Positions 336 to 9,715 of a DNA stretch of 32,000 nt are shown here, one piece after another. The notes under the pieces were generated by a model, which was not told where the DNA came from, did not search any database, and saw only the letters and a program-made list of their open reading frames with translations. This stretch comes from an uncultured archaeon (lineage in GTDB: Archaea > Asgardarchaeota > Jordiarchaeia > Jordiarchaeales > Jordiarchaeaceae): positions 937 through 32,936 of the forward strand of contig CAZECW010000188.1 in assembly GCA_964510585.1 (NCBI GenBank), given 5' to 3'. Position 1 is the stretch's first letter. Each line of letters begins with the position of its first letter. Position numbers and translations under genes: made by a program.

Positions 336-379
336 GTGTGAGTGGATGTGTTTACATCGAAATCTAGGTGGCCTCAAAA

Positions 380-1562
<1,183 letters not shown>

Positions 1563-1582
1563 ATGTGAGGAGTGTTTATTTT

Positions 1583-1999
1583 ATGGAAGAAAAAGTGAGA
1601 CTGGGAATTGTGGTAGCAGAATTTAATTATGATATTACCTATCTGATGCTCCAAAGAGCTCTTGATCATGCTGAGTTTCTGGGCGCCACAGTGGAGAAGG
1701 TGATTAAGGTTCCTGGATCTTTTGATATGCCTCTAGCCATCAAAAGGCTTCTCCAAATGGATAATATTGATGCTGTGGTCACTATAGGCGCCATTCTTAA
1801 GGGGGACACTGACCATGATCAGGTGGTGGCTCAGCATGCGGCGCGGAAAATGATGGATCTCGCCTTAGAGTATAACAAGCCGGTGGCTCTAGGAGTATCG
1901 GGGCCGGGAATGACCAGAATGGAAGCAACGGAAAGAATTGAGGAATACGCAAAGAGAAGCGTTGAAGCTGCTGTAAAAATGGTTCGGCGTTTGAAATAG
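1583..1999 (+). CDS. ribH: 6,7-dimethyl-8-ribityllumazine synthase
   Basis: [35 protein letters not shown] and [14 protein letters not shown] 1583 follows GAGGAG; ATG 1559 is an alternative start. Confidence 0.95.
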
Positions 2000-2037
2000 G
2001 TAATGGTTTTGGTGGTGCCACGTAGAGGCGTACTATT

Positions 2038-2802
2038 ATGATTCAGCTAACTTTAATACAGCTTGACAATTATGGACGATTCACCGAGCTCCTAGGGGCG
2101 GATCGGGAGTCCGATTTACAGATTCTACAATCGGAGCTCTATGCGGATCTCCAAAGGATGTTTGCTCTGAGAAGAGGATTGGTTTTTTATAATCGTTTTG
2201 ATAACATGCTTGCGGTGTCTAATGGCATATCGGTCCAGGAGCATGAGATGATTTTAAGGAGTGTGACTAGAAGGTATCCGGTTTCCATTAGTATGGGCAT
2301 TGGTTCTGCTGAAACGCCTTATGAGGCTCAAGTTCTGGCAACAAAAGTTTTACAAGAGACGGGTAGCGCCCAGTCGGAGACCCGCAAAGCGATTCTGGCG
2401 CAAAAGTCTAATGATAACGGTGGTCAGGAGTATGTTCAGATCGCCCACATAGACATAAATGGCTTCACGTCGAAAGTCACGGATCGGGAATCCGCTTACC
2501 AGAGTACTTATCTTATATATTCTTCTACCTCTATTCTCATGAGAATGTTTGGGGATAAGGGAGCCCTCCTCTTTTTTAATGGGGGGGATAATTTTATTGC
2601 AGTTTGTAATGGTTTGAAGAAGTCTGACTTCAAAGAAATATTTGATAGGTTTGAGACAAGCATGAACCTGAGGCTTAAAGCAGGCATAGGCTTTGGCAAA
2701 AATGCTCTGGACGCTCTGTCAAGGGCGAATATAGGCCTCTCCTTGATTAGGAAGAAGAAGGTAAATGATGTAATATTCCTTAACGAAGAAGAGATGCTCT
2801 AA
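2038..2802 (+). CDS. gch3: GTP cyclohydrolase III
   Basis: IQLDNYGRFTELLG..RESDLQILQ, RFDNMLAVSNG, IAHIDIN and GGDNF match the archaeal GCH III family. Located in the rib operon. Confidence 0.9.
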   Translation: MIQLTLIQLDNYGRFTELLGADRESDLQILQSELYADLQRMFALRRGLVFYNRFDNMLAVSNGISVQEHEMILRSVTRRYPVSISMGIGSAETPYEAQVLATKVLQETGSAQSETRKAILAQKSNDNGGQEYVQIAHIDINGFTSKVTDRESAYQSTYLIYSSTSILMRMFGDKGALLFFNGGDNFIAVCNGLKKSDFKEIFDRFETSMNLRLKAGIGFGKNALDALSRANIGLSLIRKKKVNDVIFLNEEEML

Positions 2803-2805
2803 GCC

Positions 2806-3987
2806 ATGTCGTACGCCATCTACGCTGACTTCTGCCTAGTGGGGAAAGAACTTCAACTACTTGAAGACGTGTACATTACGATTTCAGATGAGGGCAAATT
2901 TGAGAGCGTCTCGAAGGAAGCCCCGAAGTTTAAAGTCTACTCGATTTTTGAGGACTGCCTCATACTTCCCACATTTATAAATGCGCATACCCATGTGGGG
3001 GACTCCTTCGCTAAGGAGATGGGATACCAGTATTCCGTAGAGGAAGTGGTAGAGCCGCCACGGGGACTGAAGCACAGACTTTTGGCAGAGGCTTCCGAGG
3101 AAGAGTTGACTTCTGGAATTCGTAATGCTTGCTTGGAGATGTTATCTTCTGGCACATCCACATTTGCTGATTTTAGGGAGGGAGGACTGAAGGGAATAAA
3201 TATGCTCAGCCAGGTAACAAGTAGTTTTCCAGTTAAAGCCATAAAGCTTGGAAGACCAAACCAAGGAACATTCCTAGAAGAACTGCTTCCCCATGTGGAT
3301 GGTGTAGGATTAAGCTCCACAAACATTTATAGTGACATGGAGCTGAAACAGATTTCGGAAAAATGTAAAAAGGAAAATAAACTAATTGCGGTGCACGCCT
3401 CAGAAACAGTTAAGGAGCGAGAAATTGCATTCGAGAAATGGGGTGTCTCAGACGTTAAGAGAGCCATAGATGTTTTAGGTGCAGACATCTTGGTGCACTT
3501 GACTCACATAGACGAGGAGGACATGAAACTGCTCAAGGGCAGAAGTGTTGTTTGTTGCCCGCGCGCCAACGCTTATTTTGGAGTAGGTTTTCCACCAATA
3601 GAAAATCTTGTGGAGGAGGGAGTAAGCGTTTGTCTTGGGACGGACAACGTTATGGCTAACTCCTTAGACCTTTTTAGAGAAATGGAGTTTTTAGGGAAAA
3701 CACTCCGAGGAAAATATGGTAAAAATGCATTGCACTCCAAAAAAATAATAGAAATGGTTACAGTTAACCCCGCACAATTGTTTAATCTTGATTCGGGTTG
3801 GATAGCGTCTGGGCGAAGTGCAGACTTTATTGTTTTAAATCTGGATGCTCCCAACATTAGACCAGTAAATGACATTTACCACTCTGTGGTTCACAGAGCA
3901 AATTCTGAGAACATTGAATTCGTCTATATTAAGGGAAAAAAGGTTTTCGAGAGAGATTATTTGTTAAAAAGAGGGCTGGTCTTTTGA
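2806..3987 (+). CDS. Metal-dependent amidohydrolase/deaminase (cytosine/guanine/MTA deaminase-like superfamily)
   Basis: Metal ligands NAHTH, HASE (HxxE), HLTH and LGTDN; C-terminal G.IASGRSADFIVL. The family call is firm; the substrate is inferred. Confidence 0.85.
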   Translation: MSYAIYADFCLVGKELQLLEDVYITISDEGKFESVSKEAPKFKVYSIFEDCLILPTFINAHTHVGDSFAKEMGYQYSVEEVVEPPRGLKHRLLAEASEEELTSGIRNACLEMLSSGTSTFADFREGGLKGINMLSQVTSSFPVKAIKLGRPNQGTFLEELLPHVDGVGLSSTNIYSDMELKQISEKCKKENKLIAVHASETVKEREIAFEKWGVSDVKRAIDVLGADILVHLTHIDEEDMKLLKGRSVVCCPRANAYFGVGFPPIENLVEEGVSVCLGTDNVMANSLDLFREMEFLGKTLRGKYGKNALHSKKIIEMVTVNPAQLFNLDSGWIASGRSADFIVLNLDAPNIRPVNDIYHSVVHRANSENIEFVYIKGKKVFERDYLLKRGLVF

Positions 3988-4649
3988 AAAAACCCTATGT
4001 TATTCTAAACTCCGCCATGAGTCTTGACGGAAAAATTGCAACTCGAGGAGGAGACTCCGCATTTTCAGACGAGGAAGACTGGAAGAGAGTACACAAGCTC
4101 AGATCCCAAGTGGACGCCATAATGGTGGGGATAAACACCATTCTCCTGGATGACTCCAAACTCACTTCAAAAAAGGGAAGGAGCCCCATAAGAGTGGTTG
4201 TGGACAGTAAAGCAAGAACACCCCCCAACGCCAGAGTAATCACGGTAAGACCCGAGATAGAAACCATAATCGCAATAACAAGCAGAGCCCCTCCAGAAAA
4301 AATTGCCAACCTGCAAAGAAAAGGAGCAAAAATAATAGTTTGTGGAGACGGGGAAAAGGTAGATCTAGAAATACTCATGGAGAAGCTTTACGAGCGAGGC
4401 GTTAGGAATTTACTGCTTGAAGGAGGAGGAAACTTAAACTGGGGAATGCTAAGCAAGGGACTCGTAGATGAAATCAGAATCGCAATATCTCCAGTAATAG
4501 TGGGAGGCGAAAAAGCCACAACCCTAGTGGAAGGAGAAGGATACGCCAAAGTAAGCGAAGGTGTAAAGCTAGAACAGGTCAACTGTGAACAGGTGGGCAA
4601 ATGCATAGTCCTCACGTACAAAGTTCTGAACACCAGGAGGGAGGAATAA
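3984..4649 (+). CDS. arfC: 2,5-diamino-6-(ribosylamino)-4(3H)-pyrimidinone 5'-phosphate reductase (RibD C-terminal-like, no deaminase domain)
   Basis: KPYVILNSAMSLDGKIA, RVHKLRSQVDAIMVGINTILLDD, RVVVDS and LLLEGGG. TTG start overlaps the upstream TGA. Confidence 0.9.
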   Translation: MKKPYVILNSAMSLDGKIATRGGDSAFSDEEDWKRVHKLRSQVDAIMVGINTILLDDSKLTSKKGRSPIRVVVDSKARTPPNARVITVRPEIETIIAITSRAPPEKIANLQRKGAKIIVCGDGEKVDLEILMEKLYERGVRNLLLEGGGNLNWGMLSKGLVDEIRIAISPVIVGGEKATTLVEGEGYAKVSEGVKLEQVNCEQVGKCIVLTYKVLNTRREE

Positions 4650-5312
4650 TTGAAGCACGTCATATTGCCCATTGGAAGCACAGAACAACATGGACCCCAC
4701 CTACCACTAGGCACCGACACCTATATCGCAAAAAGAATATCTGAGGCCCTAGCCACAGAGCTAAAAATTGACCTAGTGCCCACGCTGAGTTACGGGGTAT
4801 CAGGAGAACACACAGGTTTCCCCGGAACAATTGGCATCCAACCCGAAACACTGTTGAAAACAGTGGAGGACATCAGTAAAAGTCTATTAAAATGCTACCA
4901 AAAGGTCATAATTGTCAACACCCATGGAGGAAACACTCCAACACTCCAAAAATTAAAAAACGAGAAAATAATCATAGTCGACCTATTTCACGCCCTAAAA
5001 GGGATGCTGGAAAACCTGAGAGAAACAGATATGGGAGGAATCTGCCACGCATGTGAAGCGGAAACCTCCCTCATGCTATACCTCAAACCCGACCTAGTAA
5101 AAAAGGAAAAAATCACCGAGGACATAGTTAAATACGTTCCCCAACTTGACCCACAATCAGAATCACCCCTCCCAAATGGCTGGAAAACCATAAACTACTC
5201 CCAATCAGGAGTAATTGGAGACCCCACAAAAGCCACACCAGAGAAGGGAAAGAAAATATTTGACGCTCTAATCAGAAAAATGTCAGAAAAATTAGAAACT
5301 CTCCTAACTTGA
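4650..5312 (+). CDS. arfB: Creatininase-family protein, probable 2-amino-5-formylamino-6-ribosylaminopyrimidinone 5'-phosphate deformylase
   Basis: ILPIGSTEQHGPHLPLGTD, GVSGEH, VNTHGGN, HACEAETS and GVIGDP. Sits in an operon with gch3, whose product ArfB deformylates. Confidence 0.85.
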   Translation: MKHVILPIGSTEQHGPHLPLGTDTYIAKRISEALATELKIDLVPTLSYGVSGEHTGFPGTIGIQPETLLKTVEDISKSLLKCYQKVIIVNTHGGNTPTLQKLKNEKIIIVDLFHALKGMLENLRETDMGGICHACEAETSLMLYLKPDLVKKEKITEDIVKYVPQLDPQSESPLPNGWKTINYSQSGVIGDPTKATPEKGKKIFDALIRKMSEKLETLLT

Positions 5313-5386
5313 GTAAAAAAGATAGTACAGAAAGCCAAGTAGAGCTTAAAAAACCAAAAGGGGAAAATAAGGCACTCCACCTCTAT

Positions 5387-5920
5387 TTATGTGCGATATT
5401 TTGGAGTACTAAGAATCTTTTCCGCCAGTTTGTAAAAAGCCATTATCACGTTTTTACCAGTCTTGGCCGAGGACTCCAAATAATCAACCCCAATACTCCT
5501 AGCATAATCAACAGCCTTCTCCCTAGGCACCCTGCGAAAAACAGCCAAATCGTACTTATTTCCCACAAGAATCAAAGGAACCTCTTTATTCAAACTAGAC
5601 CTGATCTGTCCAAGCCAATCTCCCAAACTCTCAAAGCTTTCCTCGCTGGTAATGTCGAAAACCAGCATAGCACCGTCAGAACCCCTATAAAGAATATTCT
5701 CCCCAAAACGGAACTTCTCCTGACCCCCAATTTCAAAAATACTCAAACTAACACGCTTACCCTCAATGTCCAGCTCCCTATTCGATATGCGAGTAAAGTC
5801 CGCTCCCTTGTAACCCTCAATAAAAACCCCATGAACAAACCTACGAGTGATACTCGTTTTACCAACCCCAGTGTCACCAGCCAAAACCACTTTGAGCATT
5901 AACTCCTTACCAGACACCAC
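5387..5920 (-). CDS. Rab-like small GTPase with degenerate switch motifs
   Basis: G1 GDTGVGKTS, G4 GNKYD and G5 SSAK are intact. G2 reads YKGADF with no Thr, and G3 reads EIGGQ. No C-terminal Cys. Confidence 0.88.
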   Translation of the reverse strand: MVSGKELMLKVVLAGDTGVGKTSITRRFVHGVFIEGYKGADFTRISNRELDIEGKRVSLSIFEIGGQEKFRFGENILYRGSDGAMLVFDITSEESFESLGDWLGQIRSSLNKEVPLILVGNKYDLAVFRRVPREKAVDYARSIGVDYLESSAKTGKNVIMAFYKLAEKILSTPKYRT

Positions 5921-6113
5921 TCAAAACAACCCCTTACCGAACCTTTTTACAACCCACAACAACAAACCCCAACGAAGCAAATCCTGCATAATAAAAGTCG
6001 AATCACCAAATAAAGATTAACCACAAACTAAAGAAAGCACCCTTCACGCTTAATAAGCAGAGACGTTAAAAATATGAGGAGGGAGCAAAATGCAACAAAA
6101 ACCCTGAATAGAA

Positions 6114-6641
6114 TTAGAGACCCTTACTTTGAATAATGCTCTTAGCCAGCGCCAAAAAGGCAGCCTCTACATTATCTCCTTCCTTGGCCGAGGTCTCAAA
6201 GAATGGCGCACCCAAACTCTTCGCGTAATCTTCTCCCTCGCTCCTCTTAACCTCCCTAAGATTCTTCAAATCACACTTGTTACCAACAACCACCACCGCT
6301 GCAACATCATTTGTATTATTCATCATTTCAGTTCTCCAATTTTCAAGATTTTCTAAAGTTGTCCTACGAGTAACATCATAGACCAAAAGTGCACCAACCG
6401 CACCCAAATAGAACCCTGACCTAACATGTTTAAAGTGGGGCTGCCCAGCCAAGTCCCAAATAATAAGTTTAACAGAAGTACCCTCAACACTAAGGCTCTT
6501 GGCGAAAATATTTGTTCCTAGAGTCATTTTGTAATCTTTCTGAAATTTTCCAGTAATGAATTTTTCAATTAAGCTTGTTTTACCCACAGCTCCGTCGCCT
6601 GCCAGAATTACTTTGTACATTAGTTCTTTGGGTTTGGACAT
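6114..6641 (-). CDS. Rab-like small GTPase (canonical motifs)
   Basis: G1 GDGAVGKTS, G2 YKMTLG, G3 WDLAGQ, G4 GNKCD, G5 ETSAK. No C-terminal prenylation cysteines. Confidence 0.93.
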   Translation of the reverse strand: MSKPKELMYKVILAGDGAVGKTSLIEKFITGKFQKDYKMTLGTNIFAKSLSVEGTSVKLIIWDLAGQPHFKHVRSGFYLGAVGALLVYDVTRRTTLENLENWRTEMMNNTNDVAAVVVVGNKCDLKNLREVKRSEGEDYAKSLGAPFFETSAKEGDNVEAAFLALAKSIIQSKGL

Positions 6642-7337
6642 TTTTCAACCATCCTTATCAATGCTTTAGAAGATTGTTTGCCCCTTTAAGGCTCTCAACT
6701 TACTCACTTTTTGCTTTCCATCTTAAATTTTTGTCCCTGAGAATATAATTCCATCACAATATAATATTTATTTTTTGGGTAAAAATTACATTTTTCTCTA
6801 ATATATTTTGTGAATAAGACAGTTAGACTAGAAGCAGATAAGTAGCGGGCTGGAAGTTTTGATTGCCCCACAGAAAAAGTCACCTCCACCTAGCCAACCC
6901 AAACCAGCCAACAACTTACACCTCCACTTAATAGGATCAAGGGACAGAATGCCACTAGAAATCATATCTTTTGAGCTAATGTCTATGATCTAGGGCTTTT
7001 TAACGCCACTAAATTCCTTTAAGTATATATCCTGAAAAAGATTTTGAGCAAAAAAGTTGAGAAAACCTCCCTTTTTTGGTGAGTAGGAGTTTCCCTTGTA
7101 TCGTAACCCTTAGGAAGGGTGGATTCAAATTTATTTGTTCTTTTCGAACTGTCTCAGTAAACCATGTGTTTTACGATGACTCTTCACACCCAGCAGGCGG
7201 AATATTTAGTGTAGCTGCGCAACTGCAATTTTATTGATGGGGGTGGTTGAGGTTTTCATTTCTTTTGAAGCAAATTTTATATGATTTTGTTAATCATCGT
7301 TCTTAATCCCAAGGAATAGTTGAGGTGAAGTGATTTT

Positions 7338-7691
7338 ATGGAAGAGTTGTTGGATGAAGTTCTGGAGCATATTGGTAAGGCCAAGTCTGCTGAAGATGGC
7401 GAGGGTTTAAAGCTTGAGGCTTGGATGGCTCGAGCTAGTTTGGAGCTTTTTCTCATTAAGTTGGTTCTGCTGCATGGTTTGGAGGAGAGGGAACCGCCTT
7501 CTGGGCCTAGTGTGAAGAGGAAGGAGCAGAATAGGGATTTGAAGCTTTTGGGTTTGGCTGAGGAAAAGGTTAGGGAGGCTCAGCGGGCTTTTGTTAGTGG
7601 GGATTATTTTTTGACTTATGAATGTGTTTGGTATGCTAAGAATGCTTTAACTAAGATTGTAACTTCGGATTCTAAGGTTTCGGGTGGGTAA
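7338..7691 (+). CDS. Hypothetical alpha-helical protein
   Basis: 117-aa ORF with ATG preceded by GAGGTGA, directly upstream of DUF99. Family not recognised. Confidence 0.7.
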   Translation: MEELLDEVLEHIGKAKSAEDGEGLKLEAWMARASLELFLIKLVLLHGLEEREPPSGPSVKRKEQNRDLKLLGLAEEKVREAQRAFVSGDYFLTYECVWYAKNALTKIVTSDSKVSGG

Positions 7692-7773
7692 ACCGAGTTT
7701 TTGTGGCAGCTTCTGTGGAGTGGTGAAAGGTTTATTTTTGTTTCTTGCTTCTTTTGTTTTTGGAGTTGATTTT

Positions 7774-8343
7774 TTGAAGACTGGTGTTAGGGTTTTGGGT
7801 GTGGCAGAGAGTTTTGTTAAGGGTGCTAGTAAGCGTTCGGTTCTTGCGGGTGTGGTTATGAGGGGTGATCTTCAGATTGATGGCTTCGCCTTCTCGACAG
7901 TTACTGTGGGAGGATTGGACGCAACTGAGGGCGTGCTTAAGCTCTACCGAGTTCTTGATAGAAGTGATATTAGGTTTCTGTTTTTGAATGGTTGTATCAT
8001 TAGTTGGTTTAACATTGTGGATTTGAATCGGGTATATGGCGAGTTGAGTATCCCTTTGGTATGTATAACTTATGAGGAGTCTGCAGGGTTAGAGAAATAC
8101 TTTAAGGAGTACTTTTCGGATTGGGAGGAGAGACTGAAGATTTATAGTAGACTGGGAGATAGGGAGCCCCTTAGGCTTAATACGGGTTATGAGATTTTTG
8201 TGCGTTACTTGGGACTGAGCAGGGAGGAGGCGGTAAGGGTTTTGAACAAGTTTACTCTTCAGGGCTCTGTTCCTGAACCCTTAAAAACAGCTCGCCTGCT
8301 GTCTAGGGCGATTATAAGAAGTGGGATTGCAAATTTAGATTAG
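7774..8343 (+). CDS. DUF99 / UPF0215 family protein (endonuclease V-like fold)
   Basis: RVLGVAESF, LAGVVMRGDLQIDG, TVGGLDAT, NGCIISWFNIVDL and VPEPLKTARL. The ORF opens at GTG 7684; TTG 7774 after GGAGTTGAT fits the family N-terminus better. Confidence 0.85.
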   Translation: MKTGVRVLGVAESFVKGASKRSVLAGVVMRGDLQIDGFAFSTVTVGGLDATEGVLKLYRVLDRSDIRFLFLNGCIISWFNIVDLNRVYGELSIPLVCITYEESAGLEKYFKEYFSDWEERLKIYSRLGDREPLRLNTGYEIFVRYLGLSREEAVRVLNKFTLQGSVPEPLKTARLLSRAIIRSGIANLD

Positions 8344-8400
8344 AGCGTAATTGGGTTTATTGATTCTGAGTTTTTGCGGGTTTTTCACTTTCCCTCTCTC
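8344..8400 (+). terminator. T-tract terminator region between convergent DUF99 and longin-like genes
   Basis: Several oligo-T runs (GAGTTTTTTGCGGGTTTTTCACTTT) just after the DUF99 stop, typical of archaeal intrinsic termination. Confidence 0.3.
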
Positions 8401-8448
8401 TATTAGGACTCCACGTTTAATGCGTAATTTTTTGCTGGTTTCTGGTTA

Positions 8449-8910
8449 TTAGTTTTTCATGTTACTCCAGAGAAGGTCTTCTATGGCTTTGAAGTTTATT
8501 AAGCGATCTAGATTGTTTCCCTCAAGTATTTTTTGGATTTCACTTTCTAGGTATTCTAGTTCTTTTTTGTTGTTTTTTCCATCCTTGAATAGAGTGTCGT
8601 ATTTCTCTTGGAATTTTTTGTAGATTTTTTTGAATTTGGAAATGTCTGATGGTTCCTGTTGGGGGTCAATTACTGCTATCATTGTGAAGTTCGTGTCTTT
8701 GTGGAATATAAACCCGTTTTCGCCTATGACGAATGAGGAGAAGCCATTGTTACTCTTTTTTTCAGTAAAAACGTTAGAGAAGTCTGATAGTGCGGAGACG
8801 AAATTGGTGAGTTCCTTGATGTTTATGTCTCTCTTGGAGTTTTCTTTGATGTATAGTGGTTTTCCCTCGCTTGATAGTATGTATATGGCGTGAATCAAAA
8901 GGTTCACCAC
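8449..8910 (-). CDS. Longin-like domain protein
   Basis: N-terminal IHAIYILSSEGKPLY strand pair, helix LTNFVSALSDF, strands SSFVIGENGFIFHKDTNFTMIAVID, then helix KKIYKKFQEKY. This pattern resembles longin folds (AP-sigma/TRAPP/Asgard longins) and was recognised by eye. Confidence 0.65.
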   Translation of the reverse strand: MVNLLIHAIYILSSEGKPLYIKENSKRDINIKELTNFVSALSDFSNVFTEKKSNNGFSSFVIGENGFIFHKDTNFTMIAVIDPQQEPSDISKFKKIYKKFQEKYDTLFKDGKNNKKELEYLESEIQKILEGNNLDRLINFKAIEDLLWSNMKN

Positions 8911-9229
8911 GTTTTTGTTATCTTAATATTTTCTGTAGTATAATTACAAAATTCTTAAATAAAAGGTTTTTGGAAGCCAAAATTGTTAATATCAAAAGGA
9001 AATACGCCTATAACTGAATTTTTGGCTATATTCCGGAGGCCTACACTATGTTTATCGAGCCTATCCATCTATTGGTGTCTTCCGCAGCACTTTTCCGGAT
9101 TAGATAAGATTTGTTATTCTTTCTTACTTTTTCTACTATTTGCACCCTCGCAGTTAGTTTAGTTACCTTAATAGGAGAGGATACTGAATGTAAAAATCTT
9201 TGGAATATTGAAGGAGAGTTGTTCTTTTT

Positions 9230-9715
9230 TTATACTTTTTTGGATAGGACTACGTATTTCTCCGTGAATCCCATTCTTTGGTATAGTTTCTCTGCGGGTT
9301 TCACGCCCCTCCTTAGATTAATTAGTGCTTCTTTGCCTCCCTTTTCACGTATAAAATCAATGGCCTTTTGCAGGAGAAGCTCTCCTAAGGATATTTCTGA
9401 CTTTGGGAATCTGGCGGGTCCGATAATTACGGTGTTTCTTTCCTCAGGGGTAATGTATACGTTTTTTATAAGGCCTGATTTACCTTTGACCTCCACGAAA
9501 ACCATGCCTACTGGGATGTCTCCTCTCCTTGCTATAAACCCCGCACAATTCTCGGGTTCAAGGATGTATTTTTCGAAGGTGCTTTGCCAGCGTTCTTCGT
9601 CAAATTTTGTTTCCATGAATTCACATAGGCAAAGCATTAGCTTTGTAGCGTCATCATAATCGTACTCTGTTACCCGTTGTATTTCAATTGGAATTTCTTC
9701 AGTTGTTGACTTCAT
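9230..9715 (-). CDS. GNAT-family N-acetyltransferase
   Basis: GFIARRGDIPVGM, IKNVYITPEER..LGELLLQKAID and AEKLYQRMGF. The acetyl-CoA loop carries an insertion. Confidence 0.85.
   Translation of the reverse strand: MKSTTEEIPIEIQRVTEYDYDDATKLMLCLCEFMETKFDEERWQSTFEKYILEPENCAGFIARRGDIPVGMVFVEVKGKSGLIKNVYITPEERNTVIIGPARFPKSEISLGELLLQKAIDFIREKGGKEALINLRRGVKPAEKLYQRMGFTEKYVVLSKKV

Follow-up and report, generated by a model that had tools for sequence, protein, structure and literature searches.

Two genes for Rab-like small GTPases lie in tandem on the minus strand of the 32,000-nucleotide stretch of DNA analysed here (the window), which belongs to a 3.78-Mb, 96%-complete Asgard assembly. The upstream gene (UP) carries a canonical set of switch motifs, whereas the downstream gene (DOWN) departs from it at G2 and G3. 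The question raised by this locus is what kind of protein DOWN has become: an atypical GTPase maintained by selection, a fully working switch of unusual sequence, one half of an obligate heterodimer, or a gene in decay.

The gene pair and its altered switch motifs

A first-pass annotation, made from the letters of the window, had described a tandem pair of Ras/Rab-family genes with similar N-termini, and such a pair was indeed found on the minus strand, with the N-termini as quoted. The genes and the two codons that set them apart are as follows.

6114-6641, minus strand: UP, a canonical Rab-like small GTPase of 175 aa with Thr40, Trp62-Asp63 and Gln67 (open reading frame, Pfam Ras)
5387-5920, minus strand: DOWN, an atypical Rab-like small GTPase of 177 aa and a member of the F-E-I-G-G clade (open reading frame, Pfam Ras, AlphaFold2, Foldseek, orthologues)
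5801-5803, minus strand: codon 40 of DOWN, GCG, giving Ala at the G2/switch I Thr position, which is Thr40 in UP (ungapped alignments)
5732-5734, minus strand: codon 63 of DOWN, GAA, giving Glu at the G3/Walker B Asp position, which is Asp63 in UP (ungapped alignments)

The two genes are arranged head to tail with a spacer of 193 nt. Both matched the Pfam Ras family (PF00071) above its cut-off of 21.6 bits, UP with 177 bits and DOWN with 143.4 bits, and the match of DOWN spans profile positions 1-161 of 162. The AlphaFold2 model of DOWN is a confident Rab fold (pLDDT 90.4), and its structural neighbours in Foldseek are all Rabs (TM 0.86-0.92 to Rab1, Rab8, Rab2 and Rab4). Among the 11 Ras-like open reading frames of the window genome in which G2 and G3 could be read, DOWN is the sole deviant; the other ten have the canonical Thr and the W-D-x-x-G core.

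UP and DOWN aligned over 172 residues with no gap (41% identity, BLASTP), and DOWN aligned gaplessly with Rab30 and Ypt31 across the switch I region (34-40% identity, HMMER). In this register the G2 Thr that the annotation had reported as missing is replaced by Ala40, and the G3 motif reads E63-I-G-G66, in agreement with the reported change of DxxG to EIGG: the Gly is retained, and Glu63 stands in register with Asp63 of UP. The residue preceding it is Phe62, where UP and the Rabs have Trp. The remaining motifs are intact, as had been stated, namely G1 (G-D-T-G-V-G-K-T, G15-T22), G4 (N-K-Y-D, N121-D124) and G5 (S-A-K, S151-K153), and they are invariant in 16 of 16 orthologues. DOWN thus has the Ras profile match, the G-domain fold and G1, G4 and G5, and it lacks the G2 Thr and the D-x-x-G of G3, two of the five G-motif criteria for the Ras superfamily.

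One element of the earlier reading has to be withdrawn. Switch I had been written as 'YK---GADF', with a three-residue deletion and about two extra residues after the Phe. Neither BLASTP nor HMMER opens a gap here, and clade members read T/S-V-G-T-R-I in register, which rules out an indel. By these alignments, the resemblance of GADF to the Rab sequence GVDF is a coincidence and the source of the apparent indel. GADF is present only in the closest relatives of the window, in whose subclade Ala40, Asp41 and Phe42 replace the T-[IV]-G core, while more distant orthologues have T/S/A/G-V-G-T-R-I, in register with the canonical T-I-G. Some phmmer pairwise alignments likewise mispair GADF with GVDF. 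The Thr of GADFT (T43), whose realignment to G2 had been named as an outcome that would overturn the reading, was also considered as a relocated G2 Thr and rejected: it occurs alongside T40 in UP and in sister-family proteins, and its position is the start of strand beta2 in the DOWN model.

Conservation and descent of the clade

Orthologues were sought among 5.8 billion proteins, with clusters drawn from NCBI, JGI, ENA and Logan assemblies. The orthologue group of DOWN is sharply bounded, with 16 clusters at 214-378 bits and the next match at 130 bits, and each of the six genomes of the genus has one copy with an open frame. A scan of metagenome loci with the clade alignment gave only canonical Rabs, at no more than 40% identity, among the matches listed. 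F-E-I-G-G was found in all 16 clusters and all six genus genomes. Within it Glu63 is invariant across the clusters and never Asp, although synonymous codons are used for it, GAA in the window genome and GAG in its five congeners. Outside the clade, an alignment of about 340 further Ras-like domains has Asp at G3 in 324 of them and Glu in six. With Glu63 present throughout the clusters and genomes, which derive from independent sources, the caveat that the change might be a private or assembly lesion was not borne out. Both the Asp-to-Glu change and the adjacency of UP and DOWN are confined to one family, which is represented by a single genus in the searched set.

The other domains with Glu at G3 include P0131 (241-405), P0152 (407-571), P0203, P0209 and P0250. 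Most such domains sit in one domain of a multi-GTPase-domain protein, which could be the fused counterpart of an active/atypical pair.

The constraint on DOWN is distributed unevenly between the two switches.

5783-5830, minus strand: switch I region of DOWN, residues 31-46, relaxed; 10 of 16 columns vary among the six genomes (3 of 16 in UP)
5681-5737, minus strand: G3 and switch II of DOWN, residues 62-80, nearly invariant; 3 of 19 columns vary among the six genomes (2 of 19 in UP)

Across the 16 orthologues there are 62 invariant columns, the nucleotide-binding motifs included. The P-loop (G-V-G-K-T-S), N-K-Y-D, S-A-K and the block F62-E-I-G...E-K-F-R are invariant except that site 66, the G3 Gly, is Gly in 14 and Ser in two; F62-R71, G73, E74 and L77 are listed as invariant in the 16 sequences. 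The G2 site is Ala in seven, Ser in five, Thr in two and Gly in two, with five changes on the tree, and the site of the catalytic Gln (67) is Gln in 12, Glu in two and Pro in two, with three changes. Ser or Thr is therefore found at G2 in seven of the 16 members, and four members are canonical in all elements save Glu63 and Phe62. In UP and the sister-family relatives the G2 Thr, the Gln and switch I are invariant, so that the drift is confined to the DOWN clade.

Among unsaturated pairs, dN/dS is 0.10-0.13 for DOWN and 0.03-0.07 for UP, and by this measure DOWN is under purifying selection that is two to three times weaker than that on UP. The proposed search of related genomes for the same deletion had a divided outcome: the altered G3 is shared across the clade, within which the G2 site drifts, but there is no deletion. 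The same holds for the description of DOWN as nucleotide-binding and non-switching. The first half agrees with the constrained binding motifs beside the altered G2 and G3, whereas 'non-switching' is too strong, because selection maintains Glu63, switch II does not vary and half of the clade has Ser or Thr at G2. Judged from these comparisons, DOWN is a genuine atypical Rab-like GTPase, maintained by selection and specific to one family of Jordarchaeia/Freyarchaeia.

Where a prenylation motif would be expected, the DOWN clade has a conserved C-terminal tail, K-I-L-S-[ST]-P-K-Y (window 5387-5430), which could be a docking or modification site. UP of the window ends in ...S-I-I-Q-S-K-G-L with no Cys, and its orthologue in the complete Freyarchaeum-like genome G005 (G005:C1:852280-852798) has Cys near the C-terminus (...K-C-I-L-K-C-K...); lipidation of UP in some lineages only is possible from these ends.

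Maximum likelihood recovered the DOWN sequences as a clade (100/100) with a long stem branch (0.81); this clade groups, at 91/83 and unstarred, with a canonical sister-family protein that reads K-A-T-V-G-T-Q-I ... W-D-I-G-G-Q-E-K-F. The sister family also has UP orthologues, at 56-62% identity and in unlinked genome positions, and when these were added to the tree, UP of both families formed a 100/99 clade without DOWN. Constraining DOWN to group with the UP of its genus was 30.5 lnL worse (p-AU 0.07, not formally rejected), while DOWN and UP as one clade, with the sister-family UP left out, was not rejected (p-AU 0.55). The first-pass annotation had taken the shared start of the two genes as consistent with duplication, but a recent tandem duplication is disfavoured by the UP clade and the constrained tree, which make it unlikely that DOWN arose recently from UP in tandem. 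The AU test did not reject an older sister relationship between the two lineages (p 0.55). Nor does gene conversion or recent duplication explain the K-E-L-M with which both proteins begin: the 5' ends are 50-63% identical in nucleotides and the genes as a whole 51%, and distant DOWN orthologues begin K-E-Y-V or L-E-Y-T. Since 5' identity is not raised and other orthologues start differently, the shared start is no trace of duplication.

The distribution of states on the tree implies an order of events in which the Asp-to-Glu change, together with Trp-to-Phe, would have been fixed on the stem branch, followed by a relaxation of constraint on the switch I Thr and, to some extent, on the Gln. 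The window lineage, with A-D-F in place of T-V-G, would stand at the far end of this trend.

A separate observation concerns the UP orthologue of the sister family, which in two genomes (G006 and G009) is split by short hairpin inserts at motif positions.

L113:2130-2176 and L113:2249-2278 (G006:C1, about 996.1 kb): inserts in the UP orthologue of G006
L114:2342-2311, minus strand (G009:C1, about 101.3 kb): insert in the UP orthologue of G009

The G2 motif is split between its T-I and its G, in G006 by an insert of 30 nt with an in-frame TAG and in G009 by one of 32 nt, which shifts the frame; the other insert of G006, of 44 nt, falls within the P-loop codons. The sequences of the inserts differ and their stem is the same, a 4-bp helix with 3-nt A-U-A and A-A-A bulges (BHB-like). 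Their conceptual excision restores perfect G-D-G-T-V-G-K-T-S and Y-K-K-T-I-G-I-D-I-F motifs, and they are probably, on the basis of these features, tRNA-type mini-introns in an mRNA.

The neighbourhood of the pair

In each of the six genus genomes UP and DOWN are same-strand neighbours, and in G005 the adjacency is kept although synteny past UP is broken. Two further features of this neighbourhood bear on how the genes may be expressed and on what they may work with.

About 6004-6024, minus strand: conserved A/T-rich box in the 193-nt spacer between UP and DOWN, a candidate TATA/BRE (conserved in G000-G004 and G002, with diverging flanks)
8449-8910, minus strand: a clade-specific longin/roadblock-fold protein of 153 aa (sub-threshold Pfam match, AlphaFold2, Foldseek)

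UP is followed by a T-run within the spacer, and DOWN may have a separate promoter at the A/T-rich box. The longin-fold gene of the window shares the strand of the pair and lies about 1.8 kb past UP; in G005 it is 9.6 kb from the pair. Its product scored 24.3 bits against Fuz_longin_1, the first longin domain of FUZ/MON1/HPS1, which is below the cut-off of 26.1 bits; the AlphaFold2 model has the longin topology (beta-beta-alpha-beta-beta-beta-alpha) at low confidence (pLDDT 61), and its Foldseek matches were zeta-COP, AP sigma, MglB, LAMTOR and Asgard roadblock proteins. A PDB sequence search with the same protein gave chance matches only. The family comprises nine clusters, all from Jordarchaeia/Freyarchaeia, a distribution as narrow as that of DOWN and matching it, and a search with the 8449-8910 protein did not find it in two sister-family genomes. 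Three contigs with members of this family (13,698, 37,228 and 36,104 bp) are equal in size to those of the DOWN homologues P0009, P0007 and P0016. As the window genome has at least 17 roadblock-type genes, the proximity of the longin-fold gene to the pair is only weakly significant. Its fold makes the protein a candidate regulator (GEF or GAP) or platform for the GTPases, a link that is suggested by proximity, the equal-sized contigs and the low-confidence model.

The flank of DOWN is occupied by a convergent archaeal riboflavin-synthesis cluster on the plus strand (368-5312), syntenic in all six genus genomes, whose genes encode DHBP synthase, two proteins of the DMRL-synthase family, GTP cyclohydrolase III, an amidohydrolase, a RibD_C reductase and a creatininase-family (ArfB-like) protein. 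On the side of UP there is a small open reading frame of 117 aa (7338-7691) and then an Endo_dU gene. The 696-nt intergenic region between UP and the small frame (6642-7337) is divergent and unusually long; the stretches 5200-7500 and 5000-9500, scanned against Rfam and for tRNAs, gave no match. A 197-aa open reading frame on the plus strand (5309-5902) runs antisense over almost all of DOWN. Homologous antisense frames are 40-80% conserved, against 58-93% for DOWN, and to judge from this comparison the antisense frame is most likely a shadow frame and no gene.

Possible function and comparison with known systems

In small GTPases Mg2+ is bound directly by the Ser/Thr of the P-loop and by the Thr of switch I. 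The Asp of G3 keeps one of the Mg2+ waters in place and forms a hydrogen bond with that same P-loop residue, and the gamma-phosphate is sensed by the switch I Thr and the G3 Gly. DOWN keeps every determinant of guanine-nucleotide binding (P-loop Lys21/Thr22, N-K-x-D and S-A-K), and its changes fall on the Mg2+ and gamma-phosphate side of this network. Ras Thr35 is highly mutation-sensitive, T35S reducing Raf binding more than 100-fold (PMC5538825), and the Walker B Asp is almost universal, with Glu instead in a few active P-loop NTPases (PMC9599734).

On balance, we consider it probable that DOWN is a Rab-like protein which binds nucleotide, has a remodelled Mg site and an uncoupled switch I, and hydrolyses slowly if at all; it probably forms one module with UP and the longin-fold protein. 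Glu63 would have been selected for and not just tolerated, its longer side chain rewiring the Mg2+ site in such a way that the link from the switch I Thr through Mg2+ to the gamma-phosphate became dispensable. DOWN of the window, with Ala40, would then bind GDP and GTP, fail to close switch I on the gamma-phosphate and have at most a slow GTP hydrolysis. Any signalling would pass through the invariant switch II as its working surface, and DOWN would most likely be a constitutive or slow-cycling regulatory subunit in a pathway shared with UP and the nearby longin-fold protein. The switch II surface of DOWN (E-K-F-R-F-G-E-N-I-L-Y) differs from that of UP (P-H-F-K-H-V-R-S-G-F-Y) at most positions, which argues against DOWN as a simple decoy for the partners of UP. 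The adjacency to UP in six of six genomes speaks for the module, but adjacency conserved within one genus may reflect simple inheritance.

A more specific form of the module, in which an active UP would be tuned or scaffolded by a nucleotide-locked DOWN, with the longin-fold protein as their platform, seems improbable to us.

A different reading, which we regard as unlikely but deserving serious attention, is that DOWN is a fully working switch with its own GEF and GAP, in which Glu63 acts as the Mg2+-water ligand instead of Asp, the missing Thr is made up for by a backbone contact or a different residue, and the protein cycles between GDP and GTP. The specific purifying selection on Glu63, the invariant switch II and the retention of the G3 Gly, the Gln and a Ser or Thr at G2 in the proportions given above all agree with such a switch. 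Activity may indeed persist, since Glu serves as the Walker B carboxylate in those few active NTPases, and EhRabX3, which has no G2, is a reported active hydrolase (PMC8514894). With Ser or Thr at G2 in seven members, Gln in 12 and four members nearly canonical, the whole clade may still cycle. Against this reading, the window subclade has A-D-F for T-[IV]-G; moreover, the drift of G2, the Gln and switch I is peculiar to the DOWN clade, and Pro at the Gln site in two members is hard to square with canonical catalysis.

The first-pass annotation had also raised the possibility of an active/pseudo-GTPase pair. That UP and DOWN form such a pair as an obligate heterodimer through their G domains is very improbable in our view. 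Their same-strand adjacency in six of six genomes, its survival in G005 after the loss of synteny on the far side of UP, and the restriction of both adjacency and Asp-to-Glu to one family speak for such a dimer. The T-run and the A/T box of the spacer suggest separate transcription, the two genes are not recent duplicates, and the search for longer forms gave no fused UP-DOWN protein from the clade, although this is weak evidence. Rag and other known GTPase heterodimers rely on additional roadblock domains, and neither UP nor DOWN has one. Finally, a decaying duplicate, pseudogene or assembly artefact would fit the faster evolution of DOWN (59% identity between the window genome and G005, against 79-80% for UP, and a dN/dS two to three times higher), but has virtually no chance of being correct, being refuted by frames intact in six genomes and 16 clusters of independent source, a dN/dS of about 0.1 and the 62 invariant columns with their nucleotide-binding motifs.

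Asgard archaea have the largest prokaryotic sets of Ras-like GTPases, which are used to reason on the origin of eukaryotic membrane traffic, and in eukaryotes switch GTPases have repeatedly been converted into regulatory subunits that are locked or dead. The same trend in a conserved lineage of Asgard archaea would mean that such specialisation also arises in the archaeal relatives. In the DOWN clade nature has, in effect, run an experiment on the Walker B carboxylate: Glu was fixed, and constraint was then lost on the catalytic Gln and on the switch I Thr, which is elsewhere nearly invariant. If the more specific module with a nucleotide-locked DOWN is true, Asp-to-Glu would be a previously undescribed route to the independence of a Ras-like protein from its switch I Thr. 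The practical weight is modest, as one small family of one genus-level group is concerned. A literature search found no paper on both pseudoGTPases and Asgard archaea, and neither the paper on Asgard GTPase structures (PMC10933270) nor that on Freyarchaeia genomes (PMC11291895) mentions the DOWN variant.

Compared with eukaryotic Rabs (Rab1, Rab8, Rab30 and Ypt31) and Asgard Rab-like GTPases (for example Thorarchaeota Rab, PDB 7ezb), DOWN has the fold, G1, G4 and G5 in common. It differs in having Ala for the G2 Thr and F-E-x-x-G for W-D-x-x-G, in its partly kept RabF motifs (RabF1 is x-D-F-T-R-I and RabF2 is S-I-F-E-I-G-G-Q-E), and in its C-terminus, which has the conserved S-P-K-Y tail instead of a prenylation Cys and ends in ...S-T-P-K-Y-R-T; in the strict sense DOWN is thus not a Rab. 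Going by its sequence, with catalytic motifs altered at G2 and G3, DOWN would be classed as an atypical GTPase or a nucleotide-binding pseudo-GTPase (classification in PMC12490416 and PMC5593906). Loss of the G2 Thr is shared with the 'pseudoRabs' EhRabX10 and EhRabX3 (PMC8514894) and with the RGK proteins (PMC4081519), while the class i nucleotide-free pseudoGTPases (AAGAB) are unlike DOWN, whose G1, G4 and G5 are fully intact. DOWN differs from the known pseudoGTPases in that its G3 change is a conservative Asp-to-Glu replacement and not a loss of the motif, and in its archaeal host.

The G3E family comprises the SIMIBI GTPases HypB, UreG, MeaB and CobW and is named for the Glu in its G3. 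Its members resemble DOWN in having Glu at the Walker B/G3 position but belong to a different P-loop class and fold, and DOWN matched only the Ras, Roc and Arf small-GTPase families in Pfam, RsgA_GTPase and MMR_HSR1 being below cut-off and the SIMIBI profiles (HypB, UreG, ArgK and CobW) not among the matches. Profile and structure comparisons both make DOWN a TRAFAC protein of the Ras-like type. The likeness is one convergent residue and does not amount to membership.

The arrangement of the locus, two adjacent small GTPase genes with a longin/roadblock-fold gene nearby, recalls Rag/Gtr with Ragulator and MglA with MglB (PMC10933270), small GTPases that work with roadblock/longin partners. Rags dimerise through C-terminal roadblock domains, whereas UP and DOWN are without them. 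If the three-part module is true, it would be an independently evolved archaeal counterpart of eukaryotic assemblies of active and locked GTPases such as Rag-Ragulator.
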